Origin: Deltaproteobacteria bacterium YD0425bin51
Lineage (GTDB): Bacteria; Desulfobacterota; Desulfobacteria; Desulfobacterales; YD0425bin51
Reading direction: 5' to 3'
Length of the DNA stretch: 64,000 nucleotides
NCBI GenBank assembly: GCA_002753225.1
Contig: PDZS01000013.1
Location: 20,167 to 84,166, forward strand
The notes under the pieces are model-generated. The model was not told the origin of the DNA and made no database searches. It was given only the letters and a program-made list of their open reading frames with translations. Both the position numbers and the translations under genes were made by a program. Within the stretch, counting starts at the first letter, position 1, and each line of letters begins with the position of its first letter. Positions 1-12,188 of the stretch are shown here, piece by piece.

Positions 1-879
1 ACATTAGAACGTTTTAAGGAAATTAAAAGTTTAGTAGATCTTAATTCATGGTTAGAAGAGTCTAATAATCATTGGAGAAGCGATTTAGGCTTTTTTATTA
101 GATTTTCTAGAGCAATGGGGCTTGATAAAATAGGTCATGGACATAACTCATTTATTAATTATGGCGCTCTTGACAATTTCATTCCTGCTGGATTTTTACA
201 AAATATGGAAATCCAAGAATTTTCTGAAAGCAAAATAAATGAGCATGTCGCATATTCATGGTATATGGACTATGAAGGAGGTAAGCACCCCTTTGATGGT
301 GAAACACGACCATACGCTTCGGGAAATGAAAGCCAAAAGTATTCATGGGCTAAAGCTCCCAGATATGATGGATTTCCTGCTGAAACTGGTCCTCTTGGCG
401 AAATGGTTATAAAAAAGCATCCTTTAATTACTGATATCATAAATTCTAAAGGGATAAGCGTTTTTGTAAGAGAATTGGCACGCTTAATAAGGACAGTAGA
501 GCTTATACCTTTAATGGATTCATTATTATTAGAAATTTTAGATAATGGAAGCTTTTATAATCCTTTAAACGAAATAATAGAAGGGAAAGGATGCGGACTT
601 ACTCATGCATCAAGAGGCGCTTTAGGTCATTGGGTAAAGATTAAAGAAGGTAAAATAGAAAGCTATCAGATAATTACTCCAACAGCATGGAATGCTTCTC
701 CTCGTGATTCTAATGGAATAAGAGGTCCAATTGAAGAGGCGCTTATTGGCACTCCTGTTCAAGATATTAATAATCCTATTGCGCTAGGCCATGTTGTAAG
801 GTCTTTTGATGTTTGTCTAGTATGTACAGTTCATTCAATTTATCGCGGAAAAATTGTGAGCAAAAGCATTATAGGGTGA
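1..879 (+). CDS. [NiFe]-hydrogenase large subunit, C-terminal ~290 aa (5' end outside window)
   Basis: Frame 1 is open from nt 1, with no stop before the Met at 115. The translation has PRYDG..ETGPLGE and GLTHASRGALGHWVKIKEGKIESYQIITPTAWNASPRD. It ends in the C-terminal metal-binding motif DVCLVCTVH, followed by a 14-aa tail (SIYRGKIVSKSIIG) of the kind removed by a maturation endopeptidase. Cys is used here, not a TGA codon, so this is NiFe rather than NiFeSe. Confidence 0.85.
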   Translation, partial: TLERFKEIKSLVDLNSWLEESNNHWRSDLGFFIRFSRAMGLDKIGHGHNSFINYGALDNFIPAGFLQNMEIQEFSESKINEHVAYSWYMDYEGGKHPFDGETRPYASGNESQKYSWAKAPRYDGFPAETGPLGEMVIKKHPLITDIINSKGISVFVRELARLIRTVELIPLMDSLLLEILDNGSFYNPLNEIIEGKGCGLTHASRGALGHWVKIKEGKIESYQIITPTAWNASPRDSNGIRGPIEEALIGTPVQDINNPIALGHVVRSFDVCLVCTVHSIYRGKIVSKSIIG

Positions 880-883
880 AATT

Positions 884-1750
884 ATGAAATCTATAATTAT
901 TTCTATTTTTTTAGTTATTATTATGATTTCTAGTAGTTATGCCATGCATGCAACAATAACAGAAGCAGAAGGTTATGCATGCATGGGAGAAGATAAATCA
1001 AGGAAGCAGACAGAACAAGCTGCAATGATCGATGCAAAGAGAAAAGCTGGAGAGTTTGCGCTGGCATACATAGAAAGTGAAACAAAAGTAAAGGATTTTA
1101 TACTTGAAAAAGATATTATTTCAGCATACACAAATTCGACTGTAAGAGTAATTCAAGAGATATCAAGCGCATGGTATAAAGACTCTTCAGTAGGAGAGTG
1201 CTATAAAGTAAAGATAAAAGCAGAGGTAACACCTAATGAAAAAGCAATAGAAAAGGTTACAAATTCTAGTGCAAATGATCCATCTGCTCCCCTTAATGTA
1301 AAAATATATACAGATAAAAAAGAATACAAAGATGGCGATAAAATTAAAATCTATATAAGAAGCAATAAGCCATTTTATATGAGACTAATTTATAAAGATG
1401 CTGCAAATAATATGATTCAATTGCTTCCAAATCCATATAGAACTGATAATTATTTCAATGGAGGGATTACATATGAGTTCCCTTCAGGCAATGATAAGTT
1501 TGAGCTTGAGGTTTCTAAACCTTTTGGAGAAGAGAATCTAATTGTTTATGCAAGCACTTCGCAGCTTGGAGATATAAGCCTTGAAACTTATGGAGATGTA
1601 TATCAGATAAAAACAAAAAAAGAACAAGTTGAAACAAAGACCAGAGGTGTTAAATTAACAGCGAAAAGTGTTAGTAAAAGCGGGAGTATTAGTTCAGAAA
1701 AAGGTGCAGAATTTTTTGAAGATAAAGCAATTATAAAGACCGGAAAGTAG
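884..1750 (+). CDS. Secreted protein with DUF4384-like C-terminal domain
   Basis: Hydrophobic N-terminal signal (MKSIIISIFLVIIMISSSYA). The C-terminal half (YTDKKEYKDGDKIKIYIRSNKPFYMRLIYKDAANNMIQLLPN) looks like the DUF4384 family, recalled from memory. The gene starts 5 nt after the hydrogenase stop. Its TAG stop lies inside the REP palindrome. Confidence 0.6.
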   Translation: MKSIIISIFLVIIMISSSYAMHATITEAEGYACMGEDKSRKQTEQAAMIDAKRKAGEFALAYIESETKVKDFILEKDIISAYTNSTVRVIQEISSAWYKDSSVGECYKVKIKAEVTPNEKAIEKVTNSSANDPSAPLNVKIYTDKKEYKDGDKIKIYIRSNKPFYMRLIYKDAANNMIQLLPNPYRTDNYFNGGITYEFPSGNDKFELEVSKPFGEENLIVYASTSQLGDISLETYGDVYQIKTKKEQVETKTRGVKLTAKSVSKSGSISSEKGAEFFEDKAIIKTGK

Positions 1751-1774
1751 AGACGCACGGCCGTGCGTCTCTAC
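1747..1774. repeat. REP-type 28-nt perfect palindrome, copy 1
   Basis: GTAGAGACGCACGGCCGTGCGTCTCTAC. The sequence equals its own reverse complement (14-bp stem potential). It overlaps the stop codon of the upstream ORF. Confidence 0.95.
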
Positions 1775-1791
1775 AATAATTGAGTGGTGTA

Positions 1792-2358
1792 ATGGAAAAA
1801 TTTCAAAATAAATATCGCATACCTTCGGCACGGGCAAAATGGTGCAATTATTCAGGAAAAGGTGCTTATTTCATTACCATTTGTACGGCAGGTACCGAAC
1901 ATTTATTTGGCGAAATAATAAACAATGAAATGGTTTTATCCAAAATGGGTATTATTATTCAGCAGGAATGGAACAAATCTTTTGAAATACGCGCCGAATT
2001 ATTTTGTGATATATTTGTCATCATGCCAAACCATATTCACGCCATTTTACGAATTTGCGTAGAGACGCACGGCTGTACGTCTCTACGCGGCTGTGTGTCT
2101 CTACCGATACGAGCACAAAACCATGGGATTGCATTTCGAGAACCAAAATCTATATCGTCGTTTATTGGAGGATTTAAATCAGCGGCAACAAAACGTATCA
2201 ACGAATTCCGTAATACCCCTAAAATACAGGTTTGGCAAACACGTTTCCACGACCACATTATCCGCGATGATGATGAATACCAATACATTAAAAAATATAT
2301 ATTAGAAAACCCAATGAATTGGGAACAGGATAAATTTTTTAAAAAGGACAACCAATGA
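1792..2358 (+). CDS. REP-associated tyrosine transposase (RAYT; IS200/IS605 TnpA-like Y1 HUH enzyme)
   Basis: N-terminal KYRIPSARAKWCNYSGKGAYFITICT, HUH motif in MPNHIHAIL, and C-terminal WQTRFHDHIIRDDDEYQYIKKYILENPMNW are typical of Y1_Tnp/RAYT proteins. I prefer the ATG at 1792 over the TTG at 1780 given in the track. Confidence 0.85.
   Translation: MEKFQNKYRIPSARAKWCNYSGKGAYFITICTAGTEHLFGEIINNEMVLSKMGIIIQQEWNKSFEIRAELFCDIFVIMPNHIHAILRICVETHGCTSLRGCVSLPIRAQNHGIAFREPKSISSFIGGFKSAATKRINEFRNTPKIQVWQTRFHDHIIRDDDEYQYIKKYILENPMNWEQDKFFKKDNQ
2059..2104. repeat. Degenerate REP copy plus extra right arm, inside the RAYT coding sequence
   Basis: GTAGAGACGCACGGCTGTACGTCTCTAC (2059-2086, two changes from the consensus) is followed by GCGGCTGTGTGTCTCTAC (2087-2104), a second right-arm-like half. 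In the RAYT frame it encodes VETHGCTSLRGCVSLP, directly after the HUH motif. Confidence 0.85.
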
Positions 2359-2441
2359 GCGGCATTGGTAAAAATAAAGGTAGAAAGTCGAAAAGCAAAA
2401 AACAGTTATTGAGGAAATAAGACCAAGATGCTATTTTTAAC

Positions 2442-2469
2442 GTAGAGACGCACGGCTGTGCGTCTCTAC
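2442..2469. repeat. REP palindrome, copy 3 (loop variant GGCTGTG)
   Basis: GTAGAGACGCACGGCTGTGCGTCTCTAC. It is preceded by TTTTAAC, the same 5' flank as the copy at 3401. Confidence 0.95.
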
Positions 2470-2622
2470 ACTCAAATGATTAACATGATTTTTCAATAGG
2501 CTATCCATGCCAATCAATCAGATATATGCGACATGCCCAAAAAAGTTAATTAGAAGTGAAGATGCAAAGCTAACGATAAATTATGAACTACTTGATAAAA
2601 ATTAAGGATAAAGGATATATAA

Positions 2623-2829
2623 ATGACTATAGTTGAAATAAAAAAAATGAGCACAGTTGAGCTTTTTCAAACAATGGAGGCTATATGGGATTCTCTTTTA
2701 CATAATGAAGTTGAAATTGAATCTCCAGAATGGCATCAAGATATTCTTGCAGAAAGAAAAAAAAAAATAGAAAAGGGTAAAGGAGAATTTATTTCAATTC
2801 AAACGCTAAAGGCGGCTCATGAAAATTAA
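2623..2829 (+). CDS. Putative addiction-module antitoxin component
   Basis: 68-aa protein (MSTVELFQTMEAIWDSL...SPEWHQDILAERKKKIEKGKGEFISIQTLK) resembling the 'putative addiction module component' antitoxins. It overlaps the next ORF by 11 nt. Confidence 0.65.
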   Translation: MTIVEIKKMSTVELFQTMEAIWDSLLHNEVEIESPEWHQDILAERKKKIEKGKGEFISIQTLKAAHEN

Positions 2830-3127
2830 AAATGTCTTTATTCTAAAAGACGCTGTAAACGACCTTAAGGATGGAGAATTTTTCTATGAACAAAATGAAG
2901 TTGGCGTTGGTAAATATTTTTGGGATAGTTTAATAGCAGATATAGAGTCTTTAGTTATCTATGCTGGGATTCATAATAAAAATTATAGTTTTTATCGAAT
3001 GTTTGCCAAACGATTTCCCTATGCTATTTACTATGAGATTAAAGATAAAATAGCTTATGTTATCGCTGTATTACCAATGCGGAGAGCTCCTATATGGATT
3101 AGAAGAAAATTGAAAGAAAGAAGCTAA
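2819..3127 (+). CDS. ParE/RelE-family type II toxin
   Basis: 102 aa. The pattern (..RFPYAIYYEIKDKIAYVIAVLPMRRAP) is typical of plasmid-stabilisation ParE/RelE toxins. It is translationally coupled to the upstream small ORF. Confidence 0.65.
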   Translation: MKIKNVFILKDAVNDLKDGEFFYEQNEVGVGKYFWDSLIADIESLVIYAGIHNKNYSFYRMFAKRFPYAIYYEIKDKIAYVIAVLPMRRAPIWIRRKLKERS

Positions 3128-3201
3128 CCATTTTTTTATGCGTGAAATATTAGTTTAAAAGCTGTGGCAGCATTTATAAACAATTTACTAATAACTTCGT
3201 C

Positions 3202-3229
3202 GTAGAGACGCACGGCCGTGCGTCTCTAC
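3202..3229. repeat. REP palindrome, copy 4
   Basis: Exact consensus 28-mer, followed by AGAGTGTT. Confidence 0.95.
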
Positions 3230-3400
3230 AGAGTGTTAGGCACAATGAAGTTATGGAGTGTATAGCTAACCTAAATCATTCGTAATCTCTGATAGATTGT
3301 AAATTTACCAATGTTTACGGTCATGATAGCTAAATTATAACTTCTTCTGAGATTACAACTCATATAGGCTTGCTATAATGCAATGAGTGGCAGTTTTAAC

Positions 3401-3428
3401 GTAGAGACGCACGGCCGTGCGTCTCTAC
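3401..3428. repeat. REP palindrome, copy 5
   Basis: Exact consensus 28-mer, preceded by TTTTAAC and followed by AGAGTGTT. This is the same 3' flank as copy 4, which lies 199 nt upstream. Confidence 0.95.
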
Positions 3429-3461
3429 AGAGTGTTTCAACATTGGATAACAGGATAATTT

Positions 3462-5294
3462 ATGCGTAAATTTTCTATTATTTTTTTATCTTTATTAGTT
3501 TATATTTTAGGGTTTTCACATTATGCCATATCAGCAGAAAAGGTTGCTTTAGTTATTGGCAACAGCAATTACAAAAATAAGGATTTATCTTTAAAAAATC
3601 CAGGAAATGATGCTGACGACATGACTAAAGTTTTAAAGTCCATTGGATTTGATGTTATTAAATTAAAAGATGGAACTTTGCAGCAAATGGAGGAAAGCGT
3701 TGATTCTTTTGCTTCAAAACTGAATGGAGCAAAGATAGGAATTTTTTATTATTCAGGTCATGGCGTGCAGGTTAAGGGGAGTAATTATCTTATCCCAATT
3801 GAAGCTAATTTGAAAAGTGAAAGCGATTCAAAATATAAATCGCTAGATGTTGGACTTGTTTTAGGAAGAATGGAAGACGCAGGTATTGGTGGGAATAAAG
3901 TAAACATAGTTATTTTAGATGCATGCAGGAATAATCCTTTTAAGGGTTTTAGGTCAATGTCAAGAGGACTAGCTTCTATGGATGCTCCAAAAGGAACAAT
4001 TATAGCATTTGCTACATCGCCGGCAAAAACTGCTGAAGACGGCAACGGGCGAAACGGAACTTATACCAAGCATCTTCTTCGCAATTTAGGCAATCCTAAA
4101 TTTCATGTAAATGAGGTTTTCAGACAAACAGGTTTAAGAGTGATGGAAGATACAAAAGAAGAGCAGACTCCATGGACATCTTCTACCCCTATTAAAGATA
4201 TATATCTGGCAAGCGGAAGCGTTGTGGTTGAAACGCCAAGTCAAGTTTCTACAACAATGGAGGCAATGCCTGATACAGGTTCTCTTATTGTAAAGACAGT
4301 TCCATTAAATGCTGATATTTATATAAATGGTACCAAAGTTGGAACAGATAATGTTCTTATAGAGAATCTGCCTGTTGGAAATATGCGGGTTATGGCTGTA
4401 AAAGACGGTTTTAAACAACTTGAAAAAGGTATTGTCATAAATAAAGGAAAAGAGACTAAGCTTACTCTGATTTTAGACAAAATTGAACCTGTAGCTACAA
4501 AAACGATTGATCGTGTGACCACAACAGCTGCTACAACAACCGTAGAACAGCAGACAATAACAGTTGCCTCATCCTCAAAGAGCATTAAAAACAGCATAGG
4601 TATGGAATTTGTGCAAATACCCGCAGGTTCATTTATGATGGGCAGTCCAGAAAGTGAACCTGGTCGAGATAGCGATGAAACTTTACATAAGGTGACATTG
4701 ACTAAAGGTTTTTATATGCAGATTACAGAAGTAACACAAGGACAATGGAAGGCAATAATGGGTAATAATCCATCTCACTTTAAGAATTGTGGAAATGAAT
4801 GTCCTGTAGAGAAAGTTTCTTGGCATGATGTTCAGAATTTTATCGAGAAATTAAATCAAAAAGAAGGAATTAGCAAATATAGGCTGCCTACAGAGGCAGA
4901 ATGGGAATACGCTTCAAGAGCAGGGAGCGAGAGTGCTTTCGCTAACGGCAGTATTACACAAACTGCTTGTGAACATGATCCAAATTTGGATAAAATGGGA
5001 TGGTATTGTGGAAACGCTGATAGTAAGACTCATTCTGTAGCCCAAAAAGAGTCAAATAATTGGGGATTATATGATATGCACGGCAATGTATGGGAGTGGT
5101 GTCAGGATTGGAAAGATTCTTATCCTTCTGGATATATTACTGATCCTACTGGCCCATCAAGAGGCGAGGACCGTGTGTACCGTGGCGGAAGCCGGGGCGA
5201 CTTTGCGAGGGGCTGCCGCTCTGCGTACCGGGAGAGTGGCACACCTGATGGCGGGTACGAATACGTTGGCTTTCGCCTCCTCAGGACCTTTTGA
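3462..5294 (+). CDS. Secreted caspase-like (peptidase C14) - PEGA - FGE/sulfatase-modifying-factor-domain protein
   Basis: Signal peptide, then a caspase fold with the His/Cys dyad (YYSGHGVQ ... ILDACRNNPF). A PEGA-like beta domain follows (GSLIVKTVPLNADIYINGTKVG...MRVMAVKDGF), then a Thr-rich linker. The C-terminus is an FGE-sulfatase domain (MEFVQIPAGSFMMGS..., WEWCQDW, RVYRGGS, GFRLLR). Confidence 0.85.
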   Translation: MRKFSIIFLSLLVYILGFSHYAISAEKVALVIGNSNYKNKDLSLKNPGNDADDMTKVLKSIGFDVIKLKDGTLQQMEESVDSFASKLNGAKIGIFYYSGHGVQVKGSNYLIPIEANLKSESDSKYKSLDVGLVLGRMEDAGIGGNKVNIVILDACRNNPFKGFRSMSRGLASMDAPKGTIIAFATSPAKTAEDGNGRNGTYTKHLLRNLGNPKFHVNEVFRQTGLRVMEDTKEEQTPWTSSTPIKDIYLASGSVVVETPSQVSTTMEAMPDTGSLIVKTVPLNADIYINGTKVGTDNVLIENLPVGNMRVMAVKDGFKQLEKGIVINKGKETKLTLILDKIEPVATKTIDRVTTTAATTTVEQQTITVASSSKSIKNSIGMEFVQIPAGSFMMGSPESEPGRDSDETLHKVTLTKGFYMQITEVTQGQWKAIMGNNPSHFKNCGNECPVEKVSWHDVQNFIEKLNQKEGISKYRLPTEAEWEYASRAGSESAFANGSITQTACEHDPNLDKMGWYCGNADSKTHSVAQKESNNWGLYDMHGNVWEWCQDWKDSYPSGYITDPTGPSRGEDRVYRGGSRGDFARGCRSAYRESGTPDGGYEYVGFRLLRTF

Positions 5295-5342
5295 GGTGGC
5301 TTGATGCTGGATGTTTACCTTTTATTGTTTTACATTTTTATA

Positions 5343-5449
5343 TTATCTGAACACGATTTATAGGATTAAAGGATGTACAGGATTCAACGCATTGACTTTA
5401 CATTTAAAATCGTGGCAATCCTTTAATCTTGAAAATCGTGTTCAGATAA
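5343..5449. repeat. 107-nt imperfect inverted-repeat element (MITE-like or structured leader)
   Basis: Left arm TTATCTGAACACGATTT (5343-5359) pairs with AAATCGTGTTCAGATAA (5433-5449). The inner arms GGATTAAAGGA and TCCTTTAATC also pair. The element lies just upstream of the OmpA-like start codon. Confidence 0.6.
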
Positions 5450-5460
5450 CAGTGGGAAGG

Positions 5461-5958
5461 ATGCAAATGTTAAATATAAATGCTATTATTATCAGCATAG
5501 CTTTTATAAGTTTAATAATTAATTCAGCGATAGCTGAAGAGATAGTTTTCCCAAAAACAGAGCAAGAAATTGTGCGAGCTTTAAGTTTAAAGAGAGGTCT
5601 TGGAAAAAGCGTTAAAATTAGACCTAAAGCCTGTGCTAAGGTTCAATTTGATTATAATTCCTATGAGATAAAGAAAGAATCTTATCCGCTTTTAGATGAA
5701 TTTGGCAAGGCTCTCAAAGGAGGGTTAGATGGAATTAATATTACAATTATTGGTCATACGGATGATAAAGGAGATGGGAAATATAATATGGATTTATCTC
5801 TTAAAAGAGCGAGTGCCGTTAAAAGATATTTAGTCGAAAAACAAGGAATATCATCTGAAAGATTAAAAATAAAAGGGAAGGGGGAGGAAGAACCTATTGC
5901 CCCAAATGATAATAAAGAAGGCTCTGCAAAAAATCGCCGAGTAGAGTTCGTAAGGTAG
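5461..5958 (+). CDS. OmpA-family (peptidoglycan-associating) protein
   Basis: The start is moved to ATG 5461, which gives a signal-like N-terminus (MQMLNINAIIISIAFISLIINSAIA). The C-terminal OmpA_C motifs are ITIIGHTDDKGDGKYNMDLSLKRASAVKRYL and NRRVEFV. The TAG stop lies in the REP palindrome. Confidence 0.8.
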   Translation: MQMLNINAIIISIAFISLIINSAIAEEIVFPKTEQEIVRALSLKRGLGKSVKIRPKACAKVQFDYNSYEIKKESYPLLDEFGKALKGGLDGINITIIGHTDDKGDGKYNMDLSLKRASAVKRYLVEKQGISSERLKIKGKGEEEPIAPNDNKEGSAKNRRVEFVR

Positions 5959-5982
5959 AGACGCACGGCCGTGCGTCTCTAC
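5955..5982. repeat. REP palindrome, copy 6
   Basis: Exact consensus 28-mer. Its nt 2-4 (TAG) form the stop codon of the OmpA-like gene. Confidence 0.95.
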
Positions 5983-6024
5983 AAACATTGATATCAATTA
6001 TTAATTGATATTTAAGGTGAAAAT

Positions 6025-6642
6025 ATGGAAGAAAGCCGTTTAGATAGAATTGAAAAAAATTTAGAATTATTTACGATAGAATTTAATAGGATGCACAAGC
6101 AAATTGCTAAAGAGATTTTAGATTTAAAAGAATCTCAAAAGAAAACAGATGAACAATTACAAAAGACAGATGAGCAATTACAAAAGACCATTAAAAAATT
6201 AGACAATATAGGAAAACAACTAGGAGATTTAGGTCTAGTACAAGGGGAAGTTGCCGAAGATTTATTTTATAGGAATGTGAAAAGTCTATTTAAAGAGGAG
6301 AAAATAACTTTTAAGAGTGTTGAAAGAAATCTAAAGAAGAAAGGTGTAGCTGAATACGATATCGTCGCAATAGATGGAGATAAGGTGTTAGTTATAGAGG
6401 TTAAAAATAAGCTAAATAAGAATATGGTTGATAATTTTATAAATAAAAAAATACCCATATTTAAAGATATATTTCCAAAGTATAGCAATTACAGGATATT
6501 AGGAGGAATGGGAGCATTAGTAATAAGAGATGAGATAGGAAGATATGCAGAAAAAGCAGGACTTTATGTTTTAACTCAGACAAGCGATGGGGGAGCTGCA
6601 TTATTAAATAAGAAGAATTTTAAAGCCAAAATATTTGGCTAA
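6025..6642 (+). CDS. Coiled-coil + PD-(D/E)XK-like nuclease-fold protein (DUF3782-like)
   Basis: The N-terminal coiled coil contains a tandem KTDEQLQ KTDEQLQ. The C-terminal part has a D...E.K pattern (EYDIVAIDGDKVLVIEVKNKL) reminiscent of restriction-endonuclease-fold proteins. This is a weak, motif-level call. Confidence 0.4.
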   Translation: MEESRLDRIEKNLELFTIEFNRMHKQIAKEILDLKESQKKTDEQLQKTDEQLQKTIKKLDNIGKQLGDLGLVQGEVAEDLFYRNVKSLFKEEKITFKSVERNLKKKGVAEYDIVAIDGDKVLVIEVKNKLNKNMVDNFINKKIPIFKDIFPKYSNYRILGGMGALVIRDEIGRYAEKAGLYVLTQTSDGGAALLNKKNFKAKIFG

Positions 6643-6646
6643 AGAG

Positions 6647-6674
6647 GTAGAGACGCAAAGCCGTGCGTCTCTAC
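6647..6674. repeat. REP palindrome, copy 7 (loop variant)
   Basis: GTAGAGACGCAAAGCCGTGCGTCTCTAC. The stems are intact and two central bases are changed. Confidence 0.9.
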
Positions 6675-6701
6675 AGGTCAGACAAGTATACTTTAAAAGA
6701 T

Positions 6702-7145
6702 ATGAAAAGAATTATCTGCATTGGCAACCGCTACATTCAAAGTGATTCTGCAGGTCCTTGTGTATATGATTATTTAAAAGAGCAAAACCTTTCACAAGAC
6801 ATAGAAGTTATTGATGGAGGATTACATGGGATAGATCTTCTTAGATTTATTGAGGGAGCTGAAAGAGTGGTTTTTGTCGATAGTATTTATGGATTTGGTA
6901 ACTCCAATAAAGTTGTTGTTATGGAAGCTAAAGATATTGTATCTGAATCTGTTAATAGATATGATCATTCGGCAGGACTTCTATATCTTCTTCAAATTTT
7001 ACCTCACATTTGTGAAGGAGATATTCCTTATATTTATTTGGTTGGAATCGAAGGTCTGCCAAATAATGATATAGTAAAAAAAGCTGCTTGTATAGCTGTT
7101 AAAATAGCCGATGGCGTTTGTGGAGATTTTTATCATGAAAAATAA
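6702..7145 (+). CDS. Hydrogenase maturation endopeptidase (HybD/HynC/HoxW family)
   Basis: [25 protein letters not shown]...[12 protein letters not shown]...VVFVDS...DHSAG fits the GN..xxDxG / vDa / H metal-ligand pattern of HycI-family proteases. The track start (GTG 6663) lies inside the REP copy, so I prefer ATG 6702. Confidence 0.8.
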
Positions 7146-9675
7146 AATAACTGATAAATTTATTGATGAGTTAGAGGAAGAAAACCTTTTGCTTAAAAAA
7201 GAAATAGAGGTTGCACGTAGAGCATCTGAGATTACTGCTAAGCTTGTAGTTGAGCAGCTTGAAAAGATGGAGGAGGTTCACAGGAGGCTTGAAGAAAAAG
7301 CAGCCATAGAACAAGAATTACGTGAAAGACTTGGTGAAGAACTTAAGCAATCTGAAAAAAGAGAACAGGATTTAGCTAAAGCTAGAATAGCGGCAGATGC
7401 TGCAAATCGTGCAAAAAGCACGTTTCTAGCCAATATGAGCCATGAATTGCGTACTCCCATGAACGCTATTATTGGTTACAGTGAAATGTTAACAGAGGAG
7501 GCTGAAGATTTAGGTCATGATGAGTTCGTCCCTGATTTAAAGAAGATAAATTCAGCAGGTAAACATTTGCTTGCGCTTATAAATGATATTTTAGATTTTT
7601 CCAAAATTGAAGCAGGCAAAATGGAGCTATACCTTGAAACATTTGATATTAATAAAATGATTCATGATGTTACAGTCACAATTCATCCTCTTATTGAAAA
7701 GAACACAAATACTCTTAAAGTTATTTGCCAAGATAACCTTGGTTCCATGAGAGCAGATTTAACAAAAGTTAGACAGGCTCTATTCAATTTGCTGAGCAAT
7801 GCTTCTAAATTTACAAAGCAAGGTGTTATTACACTTTCAGTTCAAATAAAATCAAATGGAGATGACAATAAATGGGTTGTATTCAGTGTTAAAGACACTG
7901 GTATTGGTATGACATTAGATCAGCAAAAAAAATTATTTCAGGCTTTTTCACAGGCAGATGCCTCAACTACTCGTCAATTTGGAGGAACAGGTCTAGGACT
8001 TGCCATAAGTAGACATGTTTGCCAGATGATGGGGGGTGATATTACAGTAGAGAGCGAAATTTCTAAAGGTTCAACCTTTTCCATAAAACTTCCTGCTGAA
8101 GTAATTACAGAAAAAATTGAGGAAATGGAAAAACTCCCAGAAAAGCTTATAGATATAACTGCTTCCCATGATTTAAAGACCATTCTAGTTATTGATGATG
8201 ATCCAAAGGCTAGAGATATGATAACTCGTATTTTAAGTAAGGAAAAACTTAAGGTTATTACTGCTTCAAGCGGTGATGAAGGGATAAAAATAGCTGAGGA
8301 ATCTCATCCTGACGTAATCATTTTAGATGTGCTCATGCCAGGGATTGACGGTTGGGCAGTTCTTGCTGCTTTAAAAGCAAATGTAAAAGTTTCTGATATT
8401 CCAGTTGTAATGCTTTCTGTTCTAGATGAAGAAAATATTGGTTTTGCACTAGGAGCTGCTGATTATTTGACAAAGCCTATAGACAGAGATCGCCTTTTTG
8501 CAGTTTTAAAGAAATTTTTCCCAAGCGGTATGCAAGGTTCTATTCTTATTGTAGAGGATGATAATGTAACTAGGAATATGCTTAAACGTATGCTTGAAAA
8601 AGAAGGATTATCTGTAAGTGAGGCACAAAATGGGAGAATAGGACTAGAAGTTGTAAAAAAAGTGCATCCTGCTTTAATTATGCTCGATTTAATGATGCCT
8701 GAAATGGATGGATTTCAGTTTGTAGAAGAGATTCGCAAAAATGAAGAATTCAGATCAATTCCTATTATAGTTGTTACTGCAAAAGATTTAACCCAGGAAG
8801 ATCGTCAAAGACTAGATGGATATGTTAAATTAATTGTTCAAAAAGGATCATACAATCGTCAGGATCTTTTAAGAGAACTTCGAAGTATTGTTTCAAACCA
8901 TACTCATGATAAAGCACCAGTACATTCTTTAAATAAAATTCTTGTTATTGATGATGATACTAAAATACATGATTTACTTAATAGAACTTTAACAAAAGAA
9001 GGATTTGAAGTATTAAATGCTTTAAATGGAGAAGAGGGTATAAGACTTGCTAAAGAAATAAGACCACTAGCTATAACATGTGATGTTTTAATGCCTGGTA
9101 TTGATGGATGGACAGTTCTTTCCCAATTAAAATCTGATCCTGATACTGCTGATATTCCGGTAATAATGTTATCTGTATTAGATGATAAAAAATATGGTTT
9201 TAGCCTTGGAGCTACAGAATATCTAAATAAGCCGGTTGATAGGGACCGCCTTATTTCAATACTAAAAAAATGTCGAAATGAGCTTGCAAATGGACCAGTT
9301 TTAATAGTTGAAGATGATTCTTCTACAAGGGAAATGTTAAGGAAATTAATATTAAAAGAAGGATGGGATGTAACTGAGGCAGAGAATGGAATAAAAGCAT
9401 TAGAACAGGTTTTATTAAAAATGCCGTCTATTATACTTCTTGATTTAATGATGCCAGAAATGGATGGGTTTACTTTTATAGAAGAATTTCGTAAAATAAA
9501 AGATTTTAATTCTGTTCCTATTGTTGTAATAACTGCTAAAGATTTAACTGAGGAAGATAGAATTCAACTTGATGGTTCTGTTAAGAGAATTATTCAAAAA
9601 GGAGAATATAGCAGCGAACATTTAGTTCAAGAAATTCGTAAATTAATTTTAGAGTGGAAGGAAAAAAATGGCTAA
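7135..9675 (+). CDS. Hybrid histidine kinase: coiled coil - HisKA - HATPase_c - four receiver domains
   Basis: H-box [19 protein letters not shown]; N/G boxes [24 protein letters not shown]; four REC domains (..[10 protein letters not shown].., ..[10 protein letters not shown].. twice each). The first ~90 aa are coiled coil only, and I see no sensor domain or TM segment. The start could be ATG 7135 or ATG 7111; both overlap the protease gene. Confidence 0.85.
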
Positions 9676-10036
9676 ATTACTTTTAGTAGAAGACAATGAG
9701 ATGAATCGTGATATGTTATCACGGAGACTGATGAGAAAAGGTTATACAGTTATTATAGCTGTAGATGGCGGGGAGGGAGTTTCATTAGCAAAATCAGAAT
9801 CTCCTGATTTGATACTTATGGATATGAGCCTTCCCGTTATAGATGGATGGACAGCTACAAGACAACTTAAAGCTGATTCTCAAACAAAATCAATTCCTAT
9901 TATTGCTCTTACCGCTCATGCCATGTCAGGGGATAGAGAAAAAGCATTAGAAGCAGGCTGCGATGATTATGATAGTAAACCTATAGAATTTCCAAGGCTA
10001 CTTGGTAAAATTGAATCATTTTTAAAAAAAGGATAA
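9668..10036 (+). CDS. Single-domain CheY-like response regulator
   Basis: [13 protein letters not shown]...[15 protein letters not shown]...[27 protein letters not shown]. It overlaps the kinase stop by 8 nt. Confidence 0.9.
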
Positions 10037-10040
10037 AAAT

Positions 10041-10601
10041 ATGCTTGCAGAAGAGATTAAAGAAATTTCAGAAGAAGATTATTTAGAATTTGAAAGAAAA
10101 GCTGAAAGTAGGCACGAATATCATAATGGAGAGATATTTTCAATGGCAGGAGCTTCTAGAAATCATAATTTGATACTTACTAATATTGCGGGAGAACTAA
10201 GGAATCAATTAAGAAGGCGCTGCAGAATATATGTAAATGATATGAAGGTTAGAATAGAAGAGACTAAGAGTTATGTTTATCCAGATATTATAATAACATG
10301 CGGAAAGGAAAATTTTTTTGATAAAACTACTGATGTGCTAGTTAGTGCTGAAAAGATGGTAATAATAGAGATTCTTTCTGATTCAACAGAGGCTTATGAC
10401 AGAGGTGCTAAATTTTATTATTACCGCAATCTTCCTTTTTTAAAAGCATATTTATTAGTTTCTCAAAGAGATAGAAGAATTGAACAATTTGATAAGATTG
10501 AAAATTCTAAATGGCGTTTTTCAGAATCTGATGATAATGAAATAACTATCGAAGCTCTTGAATGCAAGCTGAATTTAGATGATGTTTATGAAGATTTTTA
10601 A
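10041..10601 (+). CDS. Uma2-family (DUF820) putative endonuclease
   Basis: EYHNGEIFSMAGASRNHNLI...YPDIIITCG...IIEILSDST is the typical Uma2 pattern. Confidence 0.7.
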   Translation: MLAEEIKEISEEDYLEFERKAESRHEYHNGEIFSMAGASRNHNLILTNIAGELRNQLRRRCRIYVNDMKVRIEETKSYVYPDIIITCGKENFFDKTTDVLVSAEKMVIIEILSDSTEAYDRGAKFYYYRNLPFLKAYLLVSQRDRRIEQFDKIENSKWRFSESDDNEITIEALECKLNLDDVYEDF

Positions 10602-10622
10602 CAGGAAAGGTTAAAAAAAACA

Positions 10623-12188
10623 ATGGCAGAAGAAGAGATATCCCCTAAAAATAGGGCATTTATGCCTTATGTAAGACATGAACTCCGCACTCCTATTAAC
10701 GCAATAATCGGCTACAGCGAAATGCTTTTAGAGGATACTGCAGAGCGAGGCGAAGAAGCAGAAGGCTTGCGTGCTGATCTTGCAAATATCTGTAGTGCTG
10801 GAAAAGACCTTCTTACGCTTGTAAATGACACGACAAAAAAAGACTTTAATTTTGAAGTTTTTGGTTCAAATTTTAGGCATGCAATAAGAACTATGATAAA
10901 TACAATCATAGGCTATACTGAAATGCTTTTAGAAGATGTTGACAATACACAAAATGGATCATTTTTTGAAGATTTAATGAAAATTCAAAAAGCTGGACAA
11001 CAGATGTTCAAGCTAATAGAAGAATTTATTAAAATTGAAAAAATTGAAACAGGTAAAGAGTCTTTTGAGATGATGGAAGATGTTGTATCATCCATACGTC
11101 CGCTTGAAAATGAAGCTGAATATAAAGAGACTCAAAAAGGATATCTTTTAGTTGTTGATGATAATGAGATGAATCGGGATATTCTTTCCCGTAATTTACA
11201 GCGTCAGGGTTATACTGTAGAAATAGCAGAAAACGGACGGATGGCTTTGGAAATGATTTCAAATAAGTCCTTTGATCTAGTATTATTAGATTTGATGATG
11301 CCAGAGATTAATGGATATCAAGTGCTGCAGCAAATGAAAGAAACTAATAAATGGAAGAATATTCCAGTTATAATGCTTTCAGCTTTGGATGAGATAGATG
11401 GAGTTGTAAGGTGTTTAGAAATTGGAGCAGAAGACTATTTATCTAAACCTTTTAATTCAGCTTTGCTACATGTTCGAATTGAATCTTCTCTTGAAAAAAA
11501 GAGGCTAAGAGATAAGGAAGAAATCTATAGAAAGCAGATAGAAGAATCTAACCGTCATTTAGAAAGCCGTGTTCAGGATCAGGTTAAACAGCTAAGGGAA
11601 AGTTATGAAAGATTACAAAAAGCTTTAAACGGAACAGTTAATGCGTTATCTTCAGCAGTAGAAATAAGAGATCCATACACAGCAGGTCATCAACAGCGTG
11701 TAAGCCAACTTGCTTGCGCTATTGCTAAAGAAATGGGACTCCCTGAAAGTCAAATAGAAGGAATAAGGGTTGCAGGAATCCTTCATGATATAGGCAAAAT
11801 TTCAGTTCCTGCAGAAATTTTATGTAAGCCGGGTAAGATATCTGAAGCAGAATTTGGGGTAATTAAAAGTCATGCTGAAACAGGTTATGATATATTGAAA
11901 AACATAGAGTTTCCTTGGCCAATTGCGCAAATTGTTCGTCAGCATCAAGAAAGAGTTGATGGATTTGGATATCCATTAAAATTATCAGGAGAAAATATTT
12001 TACTTGAAGCAAAAATTATAGGGGTAGCTGATGTTGTTGAAGCTATGGCTACACATAGACCATACAGGGCGGCACTGGGTATTGACTTAGCATTAGATGA
12101 GATAACAAAGAAAAAAGGAATTGCTTTTGATGCTCAAGTTGTTGATGCGTGTTTAAGAATTTTTGCAAACAAAACCTTTAAGTTTTAA
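10623..12188 (+). CDS. Response regulator with two N-terminal DHp (HisKA-like) modules, REC and HD-GYP phosphodiesterase domain
   Basis: Two H-box-like segments ([22 protein letters not shown] and FRHAIRTMINTIIGYTEMLLED) with no ATPase domain after them. REC domain (LLVVDDNEMNRDIL...DLMMPEINGY). HD-GYP domain (HQQRVSQLA..., ILHDIGKISVP, HQERVDGFGYP). Confidence 0.8.
   Translation: MAEEEISPKNRAFMPYVRHELRTPINAIIGYSEMLLEDTAERGEEAEGLRADLANICSAGKDLLTLVNDTTKKDFNFEVFGSNFRHAIRTMINTIIGYTEMLLEDVDNTQNGSFFEDLMKIQKAGQQMFKLIEEFIKIEKIETGKESFEMMEDVVSSIRPLENEAEYKETQKGYLLVVDDNEMNRDILSRNLQRQGYTVEIAENGRMALEMISNKSFDLVLLDLMMPEINGYQVLQQMKETNKWKNIPVIMLSALDEIDGVVRCLEIGAEDYLSKPFNSALLHVRIESSLEKKRLRDKEEIYRKQIEESNRHLESRVQDQVKQLRESYERLQKALNGTVNALSSAVEIRDPYTAGHQQRVSQLACAIAKEMGLPESQIEGIRVAGILHDIGKISVPAEILCKPGKISEAEFGVIKSHAETGYDILKNIEFPWPIAQIVRQHQERVDGFGYPLKLSGENILLEAKIIGVADVVEAMATHRPYRAALGIDLALDEITKKKGIAFDAQVVDACLRIFANKTFKF

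Follow-up and report, generated by a model that had tools for sequence, protein, structure and literature searches.

The closest described relatives of the element studied here are the REPtrons of TnpA_REP subclass 2.4, in which a tyrosine transposase is accompanied by repetitive extragenic palindromes (REPs). Our element, a gene for a REP-associated tyrosine transposase (RAYT) with its REP copies, lies in a [NiFe]-hydrogenase operon within 64,000 nucleotides (nt) of DNA from Deltaproteobacteria bacterium YD0425bin51 (the window; contig PDZS01000013.1, positions 20,167 to 84,166 of the forward strand). Enzymes of subclass 2.4 (group 4 of Bertels) are about 194 amino acids long and carry NH[IFV]H, WQ and YIxNNP motifs; their "double-foot" REPs start with 5' GT[AG]G and end with C[TC]AC 3', REPs are also found within the tnpA_REP gene in the stretch that separates the HuH motif from the Y motif, without breaking the frame, and the subclass is distributed over Cyanobacteria, Bacteroidetes and a variety of further phyla (Quentin et al., 2018, PMC6006769). 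The GTAG REP superfamily is located downstream of co-directional open reading frames (ORFs), its termini give TAG stop codons and its occasional intragenic copies keep the frame (Di Nocera, De Gregorio and Rocco, 2013, PMC3733652); a word search finds no Desulfobacterota in the main text of that survey. In Marinomonas sp. MWYL1 the REPs of the REPtrons Ma and Mb are concentrated near tnpA_REP, which was interpreted as recent arrival and nearby multiplication (Corneloup et al., 2021, PMC8266576).

The window element has in common with subclass 2.4 its motifs, a length of about 190 amino acids, flanking double-foot REPs, an in-frame internal REP and a scattered occurrence over many phyla (PMC6006769). 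It differs in its host, a Desulfobacterales metagenome-assembled genome (MAG), in the fourth residue of the Tyr motif, which is E and not N, and in that its REPs are interleaved with seven cargo genes in a hydrogenase operon instead of just flanking tnpA. With the GTAG superfamily (PMC3733652) the window REPs share the placement, the TAG stops and the in-frame intragenic copy, whereas the window palindrome is perfect, has GTAG at both feet and a stem of 12-14 bp. The clustering near tnpA_REP is likewise seen in Marinomonas; however, the RAYTs described there belong to groups 2 and 3 and have other REP types, their activity was shown biochemically while the window RAYT is known from sequence, and the available text describes no operon disruption (PMC8266576). 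The feature is real, but nothing sets it apart from other elements of its kind, which has been described before: the element class, the internal REP, the REP-supplied stops and the clustering of REPs near tnpA_REP are already published (PMC6006769, PMC8266576, PMC3733652).

The locus as a whole is probably best explained by the insertion of a mosaic block of genes into the operon and by a REPtron that multiplied its REPs locally, the REPs being colonisers of the block and not its proven builders. It adds a case, not a principle. The case is a clean natural one of a maturation-protease gene that was moved 5.8 kb away from the gene of its hydrogenase substrate by accessory and selfish DNA, and it places a transposase of a domesticated type, with its hairpins locally concentrated, in a Desulfobacterales MAG, a group unmentioned in the REP literature cited here as far as its available text goes. 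The locus is useful for the question of how REPs partition operon expression and bears on whether RAYTs ever move passenger genes.

The palindrome and its transposase

The palindrome GTAGAGACGCACGGCCGTGCGTCTCTAC is 28 nt long and has seven matches in the window at up to three mismatches, against 0.00 expected from shuffled sequences; all of them lie within 1747-6674. The surroundings of the window were read on the source contig JADGCY010000013.1 (123,565 bp) of the Desulfobacterales MAG GCA_015228685.1, positions 11,958-93,575 (81.6 kb), where an eighth copy was found. The copies (given without strand) and the RAYT gene are as follows.

-1655 (6554-6581 of locus L205): eighth REP copy, perfect, outside the window, between the FMN-oxidoreductase and hydrogenase small-subunit genes
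1747-1774: REP copy, perfect, 17 nt upstream of the RAYT ATG; contains the TAG stop of the DUF4384 gene
1792-2358, + strand: RAYT (TnpA_REP) gene, 188 amino acids, motifs NHIH, WQ and YILENP, subclass 2.4-like
2059-2104: REP copy in the RAYT ORF with two mismatches (2059-2086) plus an extra half arm (2087-2104), in frame, encoding VETHGCTSLRGCVSL
2442-2469: REP copy, one mismatch, 84 nt past the RAYT stop, left flank TTTTAAC
3202-3229: REP copy, perfect, right flank AGAGTGTT
3401-3428: REP copy, perfect, with both flanks (TTTTAAC-REP-AGAGTGTT), 33 nt upstream of the caspase gene
5955-5982: REP copy, perfect; contains the TAG stop of the OmpA gene
6647-6674: REP copy at the right junction, with two loop-region mismatches; the start codon of the protease gene follows after 27 nt

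Seven of the eight copies are extragenic and all seven lie 3' of a + strand gene. Three overlap or abut a stop codon. The TAG stops of the DUF4384 and OmpA genes are inside the REP (G-TAG-AG), and that of the FMN-oxidoreductase gene shares its G with the copy at -1655. The repeat is therefore what is expected of GTAG-type REPs, a palindrome of 20-40 nt with a GTAG foot that is repeated, mostly extragenic and found downstream of ORFs.

An earlier reading of the window, made from its sequence only, had placed a perfect copy of the 28-mer at six of seven gene junctions. The repeat itself stands, but its count and perfection do not: a REP is present at five of eight junctions (five of seven if the toxin-antitoxin (TA) pair is taken as one gene), with two at the toxin/caspase junction; four of the seven window copies are perfect, one has one mismatch and two have two; and six are intergenic, the copy at 2059 being inside the RAYT ORF. 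The REP-free junctions are large subunit/DUF4384 (4 nt), antitoxin/toxin (overlapping) and caspase/OmpA, which holds a 107-nt hairpin instead. The same reading was right that no REP lies at the left junction (879/884) and that the other ~57 kb of the window are free of the 28-mer, as the scan at up to three mismatches found. Its view that the REPs concentrate around their RAYT also holds. Out of the 81.6 kb, all eight copies fall within a stretch of 8.3 kb that has the RAYT gene at its centre (P ~9e-7 for uniform placement, range formula), and the remaining ~73 kb, including 8.2 kb upstream and 9.4 kb downstream of the window, contain no further REP and no half arm at one mismatch. The cluster is not coextensive with the block of accessory genes: it also brackets the hydrogenase structural genes.

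Two inverted REPs around a short spacer, which fold into one long hairpin and replicate as a unit, are said to form the REPIN of Bertels and Rainey (2011). The copies at 3202 and 3401 are the only close pair in the window, with a spacer of 171 nt, and their palindromes can pair with each other. Their asymmetric flanks are in direct orientation and the spacer folds without extended self-complementarity by inspection; the other copies are singletons.

The RAYT protein is matched by the NCBIfam profile REP_Tyr_transpos (NF047646) with E 8.9e-18 and 64.6 bits, below the curated cut-off of 80, and by Pfam Y1_Tnp (PF01797) with 21.6 bits, below the cut-off of 23. The NCBIfam match comes in two stretches because a REP-encoded insert splits it. 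The HuH motif, PNHIHAIL, fits NH[IFV]H and is conserved in at least 20 homologues, the WQ motif reads VWQTRFHDHII, and the Tyr motif KYILENP conserves Y, I, N and P, with the E in fourth position. The internal REP is in frame between the HuH and Tyr motifs and the ORF stays open; the gene is flanked by cognate REPs at 1747-1774 and 2442-2469, in agreement with the "double-foot" arrangement. Judged by its sequence, the window pair matches a TnpA_REP of subclass 2.4 with its cognate double-foot REP (GTAG...CTAC) in every feature tested. In a search of the PDB the RAYT also gave matches to TAL effectors; these come from a short low-scoring stretch aligning to repeats and were ignored.

Protein similarity retrieves 5747 RAYT homologues, the closest 68% identical, and VETHGRASL is encoded in 42 of the 120 closest. 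The 28-mer was additionally scanned for, with four degenerate positions, in one genome per species. At least 119 blocks of 8 kb contain it, spanning a dozen or more phylum-level groups, and the source genome is not among the matches listed; the blocks listed come from Bacteroidota, Spirochaetota, Chloroflexota, Desulfobacterota, Parabeggiatoa, Moduliflexus, Fibrobacterota, Planctomycetota, Calditrichota, Patescibacteria, Armatimonadota, Clostridia and others. RAYT homologues 34-60% identical to that of the window are found in 23 of these at least 119 blocks. In 19 of the 23 homologous loci listed the palindrome lies within the RAYT ORF, by inspection at the same place. What it encodes is usually VETHGRASL(Q), and the sequence on its flanks is variable and of low complexity. 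We considered whether an internal REP together with a 28-mer shared across phyla is a new phenomenon and rejected this, since an internal REP has already been described as characteristic of subclass 2.4 (PMC6006769).

Some of the blocks (our locus labels, with position) show the REP in other settings. It is often centred exactly in a longer palindrome, for example AAAAAAATTCCACCCC-REP-GGGGTGGAATTTTTT; such cases are L015:220, L029:4291, L034:2518, L063:4824, L068:4197, L090:2455, L109:3190 and L115:3193. It looks as if these REPs were inserted in the loop of a pre-existing hairpin or terminator. REP-containing tandem arrays resembling bacterial interspersed mosaic elements (BIMEs) occur at L008:5272-5600, with a period of 57 nt and beside a RAYT gene, and at L075:6600-7830, in units of ~309 nt. 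The L008 array was inspected as a possible clustered regularly interspaced short palindromic repeat (CRISPR) array; its "spacers" are themselves repeated and it is a tandem repeat. In a Moduliflexus genome (L025:296-1114) a REP at 772 lies within the match to an FGE-sulfatase-domain gene homologous to the caspase-FGE protein of the window. The alignment there exceeds the query stretch by ~50 residues, which points to a further intragenic REP that keeps the frame.

Accessory DNA between the hydrogenase and protease genes

All genes between 880 and 6701 are on the + strand, and their functions as read from sequence only (a DUF4384 protein, RAYT, TA pair, caspase-FGE protein, OmpA-like protein and nuclease-fold protein) were recovered by a Pfam scan. 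The genes of the block and their neighbours, the RAYT gene aside, are the following.

1-879, + strand: [NiFe]-hydrogenase large-subunit gene, 3' part (Pfam NiFeSe_Hases, E 1.8e-57), frame 1 open from base 1
884-1750, + strand: DUF4384 protein with a hydrophobic N-terminus (Pfam DUF4384, E 9.5e-26)
2623-2829, + strand: antitoxin-like gene (Pfam Unstab_antitox, E 2.5e-11)
2819-3127, + strand: ParE/RelE-type toxin-like gene (Pfam ParE_toxin, E 4.8e-5, 24.3 bits, cut-off 23), overlapping the antitoxin gene by 11 nt
3462-5294, + strand: caspase (Peptidase_C14) - PEGA - FGE-sulfatase protein (Pfam E 6e-37, 2e-11 and 5.4e-43), N-terminus hydrophobic
5343-5449, no strand: 107-nt hairpin in the caspase/OmpA spacer, not a REP copy; 42-nt arms, 83% complementary, 23-nt loop
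5467-5958, + strand: OmpA-like peptidoglycan-binding protein, 163 amino acids by the NCBI gene call (Pfam OmpA, E 3.2e-25)
6025-6642, + strand: PD-(D/E)xK (NERD/YraN/Hjc-like) nuclease-fold protein (Pfam matches weak: NERD, E 4.8e-4; Hjc, E 7.6e-3)
6702-7145, + strand: [NiFe]-hydrogenase maturation endopeptidase gene, HycI/HybD-type, 147 amino acids, profile matches above cut-off
7135-9675, + strand: hybrid histidine kinase with four receiver domains (Pfam), overlapping the protease gene

The large-subunit ORF is truncated by the left edge of the window; the complete gene on the source contig encodes 496 amino acids and its stop codon is at 877-879. The sequence-only reading had described a large subunit that ends at 879 with a C-terminal tail and a matching protease gene that starts only at 6702, and both statements proved correct. 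The protein ends with DVCLVCTVH followed by a tail of 14 amino acids, SIYRGKIVSKSIIG (12-13 amino acids in the relatives L120 and L123), and the product of 6702-7145 exceeds the cut-offs of Pfam HycI (31.7 bits, cut-off 23) and TIGR00072 (57.8 bits, cut-off 47.45). A profile match above cut-off is thus found together with a partner large subunit extended past Cys-x-x-Cys-x-x-His, as in maturation endopeptidases. Additionally, the window protease is 42-52% identical to proteases encoded directly 3' of the large subunit in several closer relatives.

To what extent this separation is peculiar to the lineage is seen from 84 related loci (808 kb): four inspected contigs (L120-L123) and 80 loci that a scan of metagenomes retrieved with an alignment of 25 sequences. 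No homologue of the large-subunit fragment is more than 62% identical, and the nearest hydrogenase relatives are at 52-62%. In L120 and L123 the genes overlap or abut and are ordered small subunit - large subunit - protease - HisKA/HATPase/REC kinase; in L121 short unassigned ORFs, one of them matching the protease, precede the kinase, and in L122 no protease is detectable. A tblastn search found a protease homologue in 30 of the 84 loci, and in 28 of these 30 it starts 0-185 nt past the point where the large-subunit alignment ends. In the other two the distance is 585 nt (L169) and 2161 nt, the latter taken up by a REC-PAS gene (L174). Block genes are absent from the space between large-subunit and protease genes in all 84 loci, and their 808 kb contain no RAYT, no full REP and no homologue of the DUF4384, TA-pair, OmpA, NERD or Uma2 genes; the only matches are a weak one to the caspase domain upstream of the large-subunit gene (L166) and one REP half-site (L150). 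Because 28 of 30 relatives keep the protease beside the large subunit and none of the 84 holds block genes between the two, the block is, judged by gene order, a lineage-specific and derived insertion into the conserved order small subunit - large subunit - protease - kinase. Some relatives, L122 and L129, are without a detectable protease and have the kinase directly after the large subunit.

One would argue that the arrangement is ancestral instead, the DUF4384, caspase and OmpA genes being accessories of the hydrogenase or its sensor and the REPs a decoration of an old operon. The DUF4384 gene indeed begins 4 nt past the large-subunit stop with a ribosome-binding-like GGGTGA within the end of the large-subunit gene, which looks like translational coupling, and the composition is uniform over the block. 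However, the 84 loci show the block genes absent from this position and the protease gene contiguous in 28 of 30, and DUF4384 homologues occur in unrelated, hydrogenase-free contexts. Synteny thus already largely refutes this explanation, which we regard as highly improbable. The comparison with orthologous loci, which had been proposed as a check from the sequence, therefore speaks for an insertion, and a gene order shared with relatives was not found.

The composition of the block, contrastingly, does not set it apart. When compared with the remainder of the window it has a tetranucleotide distance of 0.0144; 59 sliding windows average 0.0123 (standard deviation 0.0019), and 11 of them are more deviant; G+C at third codon positions is slightly higher only in the RAYT (0.33) and caspase (0.28) genes. 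The suggested look at k-mer profiles thus revealed nothing compositionally foreign. Of the marks of a classical genomic island, a compositional shift, an integrase and a boundary repeat were looked for: GC and tetranucleotide profile stay within the range of the window, and neither an integrase nor a repeat at the left boundary is present.

The same uniformity bears on an assembly artefact, in which the MAG contig would be chimeric through the repeated 28-mers. The source is metagenome-assembled and has eight copies of a 28-nt repeat in 8 kb. However, the left junction (879/884) has no repeat at all, the composition is uniform, the two halves of the operon stand in correct order and orientation on either side, and two contig records hold the same genes with the same neighbours. 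A repeat of 28 nt is also shorter than the final k-mers of usual assemblers. We find such an artefact hardly credible at all.

Some properties of the individual genes should be added. The DUF4384 protein, a putative lipoprotein by the sequence-only reading, ends with ...KTGK, a native C-terminus that matches its homologues. It is ~286 amino acids long and belongs to a very widespread and well conserved family, with 1637 homologues at 55-64% identity across Nitrospirota and Desulfobacterota; members often adjoin caspase and/or WD40 proteins. The product of 6025-6642 is also matched by NCBIfam YraN (E 3.7e-4) and weakly by DUF8196, and its N-terminus is repeat-rich, by eye possibly a coiled coil. 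The RNA of the caspase/OmpA spacer (5295-5465) folds with -53.5 kcal/mol (z -6); the hairpin at 5343-5449 is unique in the window and is possibly a miniature inverted-repeat transposable element (MITE) or a regulatory structure. Rfam gave no credible match in 1-12000. A known defence system was also considered for the block and rejected, as PADLOC returned generic domain matches only.

Multiplication of the REPs and assembly of the block

It had been suggested from the sequence that the REPs drove or marked gene accretion inside the operon. This is not supported: the left and the caspase/OmpA junctions are REP-free, one REP stands upstream of the hydrogenase genes, the Uma2 gene (10041-10601), another accessory gene of this signalling operon, has no REP beside it, and the composition is uniform. 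The contexts of DUF4384 homologues in other genomes point in another direction: in two of three examined (L207, L209 and L210) the gene is beside caspase and/or WD40 proteins, the caspase domain being on record only in L209, and in L207 a different TA pair lies between the neighbours. No REP is present at the DUF4384-caspase neighbourhoods of L207 and L209. Because DUF4384 and caspase/WD40 genes adjoin elsewhere without REPs, the DUF4384-caspase(-OmpA) set looks, on these contexts, like a pre-existing module in which the RAYT and the TA pair were placed later. An ancestral adjacency of a methyl-accepting chemotaxis protein (MCP) gene and the DUF4384 gene was considered as well, as L207 has an MCP gene before DUF4384 and the source contig has one upstream of the hydrogenase; the two MCPs are only 28% identical, in the signalling domain, and the idea was rejected.

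The TA pair is the sole segment with a REP-linked insertion signature. Its segment (2470-3201) is bracketed by TTTTAAC-REP at 2442 and REP-AGAGTGTT at 3202, which are the two halves of the intact 43-nt unit at 3401. The copy at 2442 shares only its left flank and the copy at 3202 only its right flank with 3401; no other pair of copies shares more than 4 nt, and with random positions the probability that both top flank matches reach 7 nt is ~0.0002. No homology longer than 7-8 nt is found in the REP flanks. This is one hint of a REP-linked insertion of the pair: its segment stands in a split unit whose REP is duplicated, and insertion at a REP or recombination between two REPs would leave such a picture.

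This hint could be taken further, to a capture of cassettes in which the RAYT, by cleaving and transferring single strands at hairpins, would cut out REP-bounded segments and insert them anew at resident REPs, as in integrons but with the REP in place of attC. Like the integron cassette arrays, the block consists of co-oriented, tightly packed and unrelated genes, among them a TA pair, most of which are followed by a hairpin repeat, and the integron recombinase, like the enzyme class found here, acts on folded single-stranded DNA. No IntI, attI or attC is seen here, however: the genes from -8 kb to +20 kb encode no intI or integrase domain, the enzyme is a HUH Y1 transposase, and the repeats are identical and 28 nt long, whereas those of integrons measure 57-141 nt and are variable. 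In favor of capture are the TA segment inside a split 43-nt REP unit and the layout of the block, whose genes all share one orientation and mostly have a single REP behind them. TnpA_REP enzymes do cleave and join REP DNA in vitro (PMC8266576). The same REP also brackets small accessory genes elsewhere, in three Bacteroidota loci: at L114:600-3130 REP-bearing repeats enclose a MNT/HepT TA pair and a helix-turn-helix-pentapeptide gene within ~220-nt direct repeats, at L014:4572-6715 REPs enclose a YhcG/DUF1016 nuclease beside a RAYT, and at L034:12-2545 a DUF2442 gene. These three cases are anecdotal and a shared preference for permissive spacers would suffice for them.

Several facts argue against capture. 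The large subunit/DUF4384 and caspase/OmpA junctions have no REP, one REP stands upstream of the hydrogenase genes, which are not cargo, and no homologue of a block gene is found in a REP-bounded segment among the 119 blocks listed. In one of these, L012, an OmpA-like match stops ~60 nt short of a REP. The flank sharing is only 7-8 nt, and recombination between REPs, or unrelated DNA entering the hairpin, gives the same picture. We know of no demonstration that a RAYT transposes passenger genes. Thus it is unlikely that the block was assembled by cassette capture, and quite improbable that RAYTs of subclass 2.4 with double-foot REPs form a gene-capture system at large, which inserts segments such as TA pairs, small nuclease genes and genes for envelope proteins at resident REPs and builds co-oriented cassette arrays in operons as the HUH-transposase analogue of the integron. 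If this were true, gene capture would have left as footprints the split REP unit that encloses the TA pair and, in Bacteroidota, the TA and nuclease genes with REPs on either side (L114, L014). An association of TnpA_REP with expanding neighbour genes is also known for the prochlorosin genes of marine picocyanobacteria, where a causal role was proposed from genome structure and the authors later stated that they had found no strong evidence either way (Laurenceau et al., bioRxiv 10.1101/2020.03.09.984088); a single diversifying gene family makes up that cargo, whereas the window cargo is an unrelated mosaic.

We therefore return to insertion followed by local multiplication of the REPs. The original operon would have been small subunit - large subunit - maturation protease - histidine kinase, linked to a sensor kinase. 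In this lineage 5.8 kb of accessory DNA now separates the large-subunit and protease genes, a mosaic of an envelope pair or trio (DUF4384, caspase and perhaps the OmpA-like gene) and of selfish or mobile items, namely the TA pair, the small nuclease gene and the REPtron. The RAYT, acting on single-stranded DNA hairpins, may then have multiplied the REP locally, so that nearly every usable intergenic spacer from ~-3.4 to +4.3 kb of its gene would have been filled, among them a spacer that precedes the hydrogenase genes. On the best reading the REPs colonised the insert, and they are not proven to have assembled it.

Several facts weigh against this account. The relatives are only 52-62% identical and offer no empty-site allele from a close relative by which the insertion events could be dated or counted. 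With no compositional contrast, an old or intragenomic origin of the block cannot be separated from a recent one. The enrichment of REPs is that seen over 81.6 kb of one contig, and the RAYT falls below the curated cut-offs of both profile libraries, its activity being only predicted. Finally, 96 of the 119 blocks listed have no RAYT within the block; as the 28-mer is far from any RAYT in most of the other genomes listed, the spread of the REP apparently is not obligatorily local.

REP transcripts and the setting of the operon

Transcribed into RNA, the REP forms a 12-bp stem with a GGCC loop, which folds with -19.5 to -24.4 kcal/mol at z scores from -3.9 to -6.7 and has no U tract after it; by copy, the hairpin at 1747 has -22.2, that at 6647 -19.5 and the extended one at 2059-2104 -32.1 kcal/mol. 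A role as intrinsic terminators was rejected, as U tracts are missing and the terminator scan does not call the REPs. In the operons of E. coli, for example malEFG, the stem-loops of REPs and BIMEs between cistrons shield the upstream mRNA, and REPs within ~15 nt of a stop codon reportedly lower upstream translation, an observation credited to Liang, Rudd and Deutscher (2015). The E. coli REPs differ from those of the window in sequence and RAYT group. By analogy, the hairpins at stop codons (about -22 kcal/mol) would most likely act as stabilisers of 3' ends, as processing elements or as dampers of translation and not as full terminators. No distinct promoter-like site was seen in 6643-6701; transcription could read through to the protease gene, and the co-oriented protease and kinase genes may still be reached in this way.

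The hydrogenase had been compared from the sequence with hynBAC-type operons. The small subunit has no obvious twin-arginine (Tat) signal (the N-terminus was inspected by eye) and the operon runs on into sensor-kinase genes, and therefore the enzyme does not look like a periplasmic Hyn-type hydrogenase. The histidine kinase is its conserved downstream partner in L120, L121, L123, L127, L184 and others. Further downstream are genes for a receiver, for Uma2 and for a HisKA-REC-HD-GYP protein, as well as genes whose domains are DsrMKJOP-like; this points to a sulfate reducer as the host, with ~34% G+C. The Uma2 gene (10041-10601), a putative restriction endonuclease gene and PADLOC candidate PDC-S03, lies between the receiver and HisKA-REC-HD-GYP genes with spacers of 4 and 21 nt that hold no REP; it may be a second insertion of an accessory gene in the same operon.

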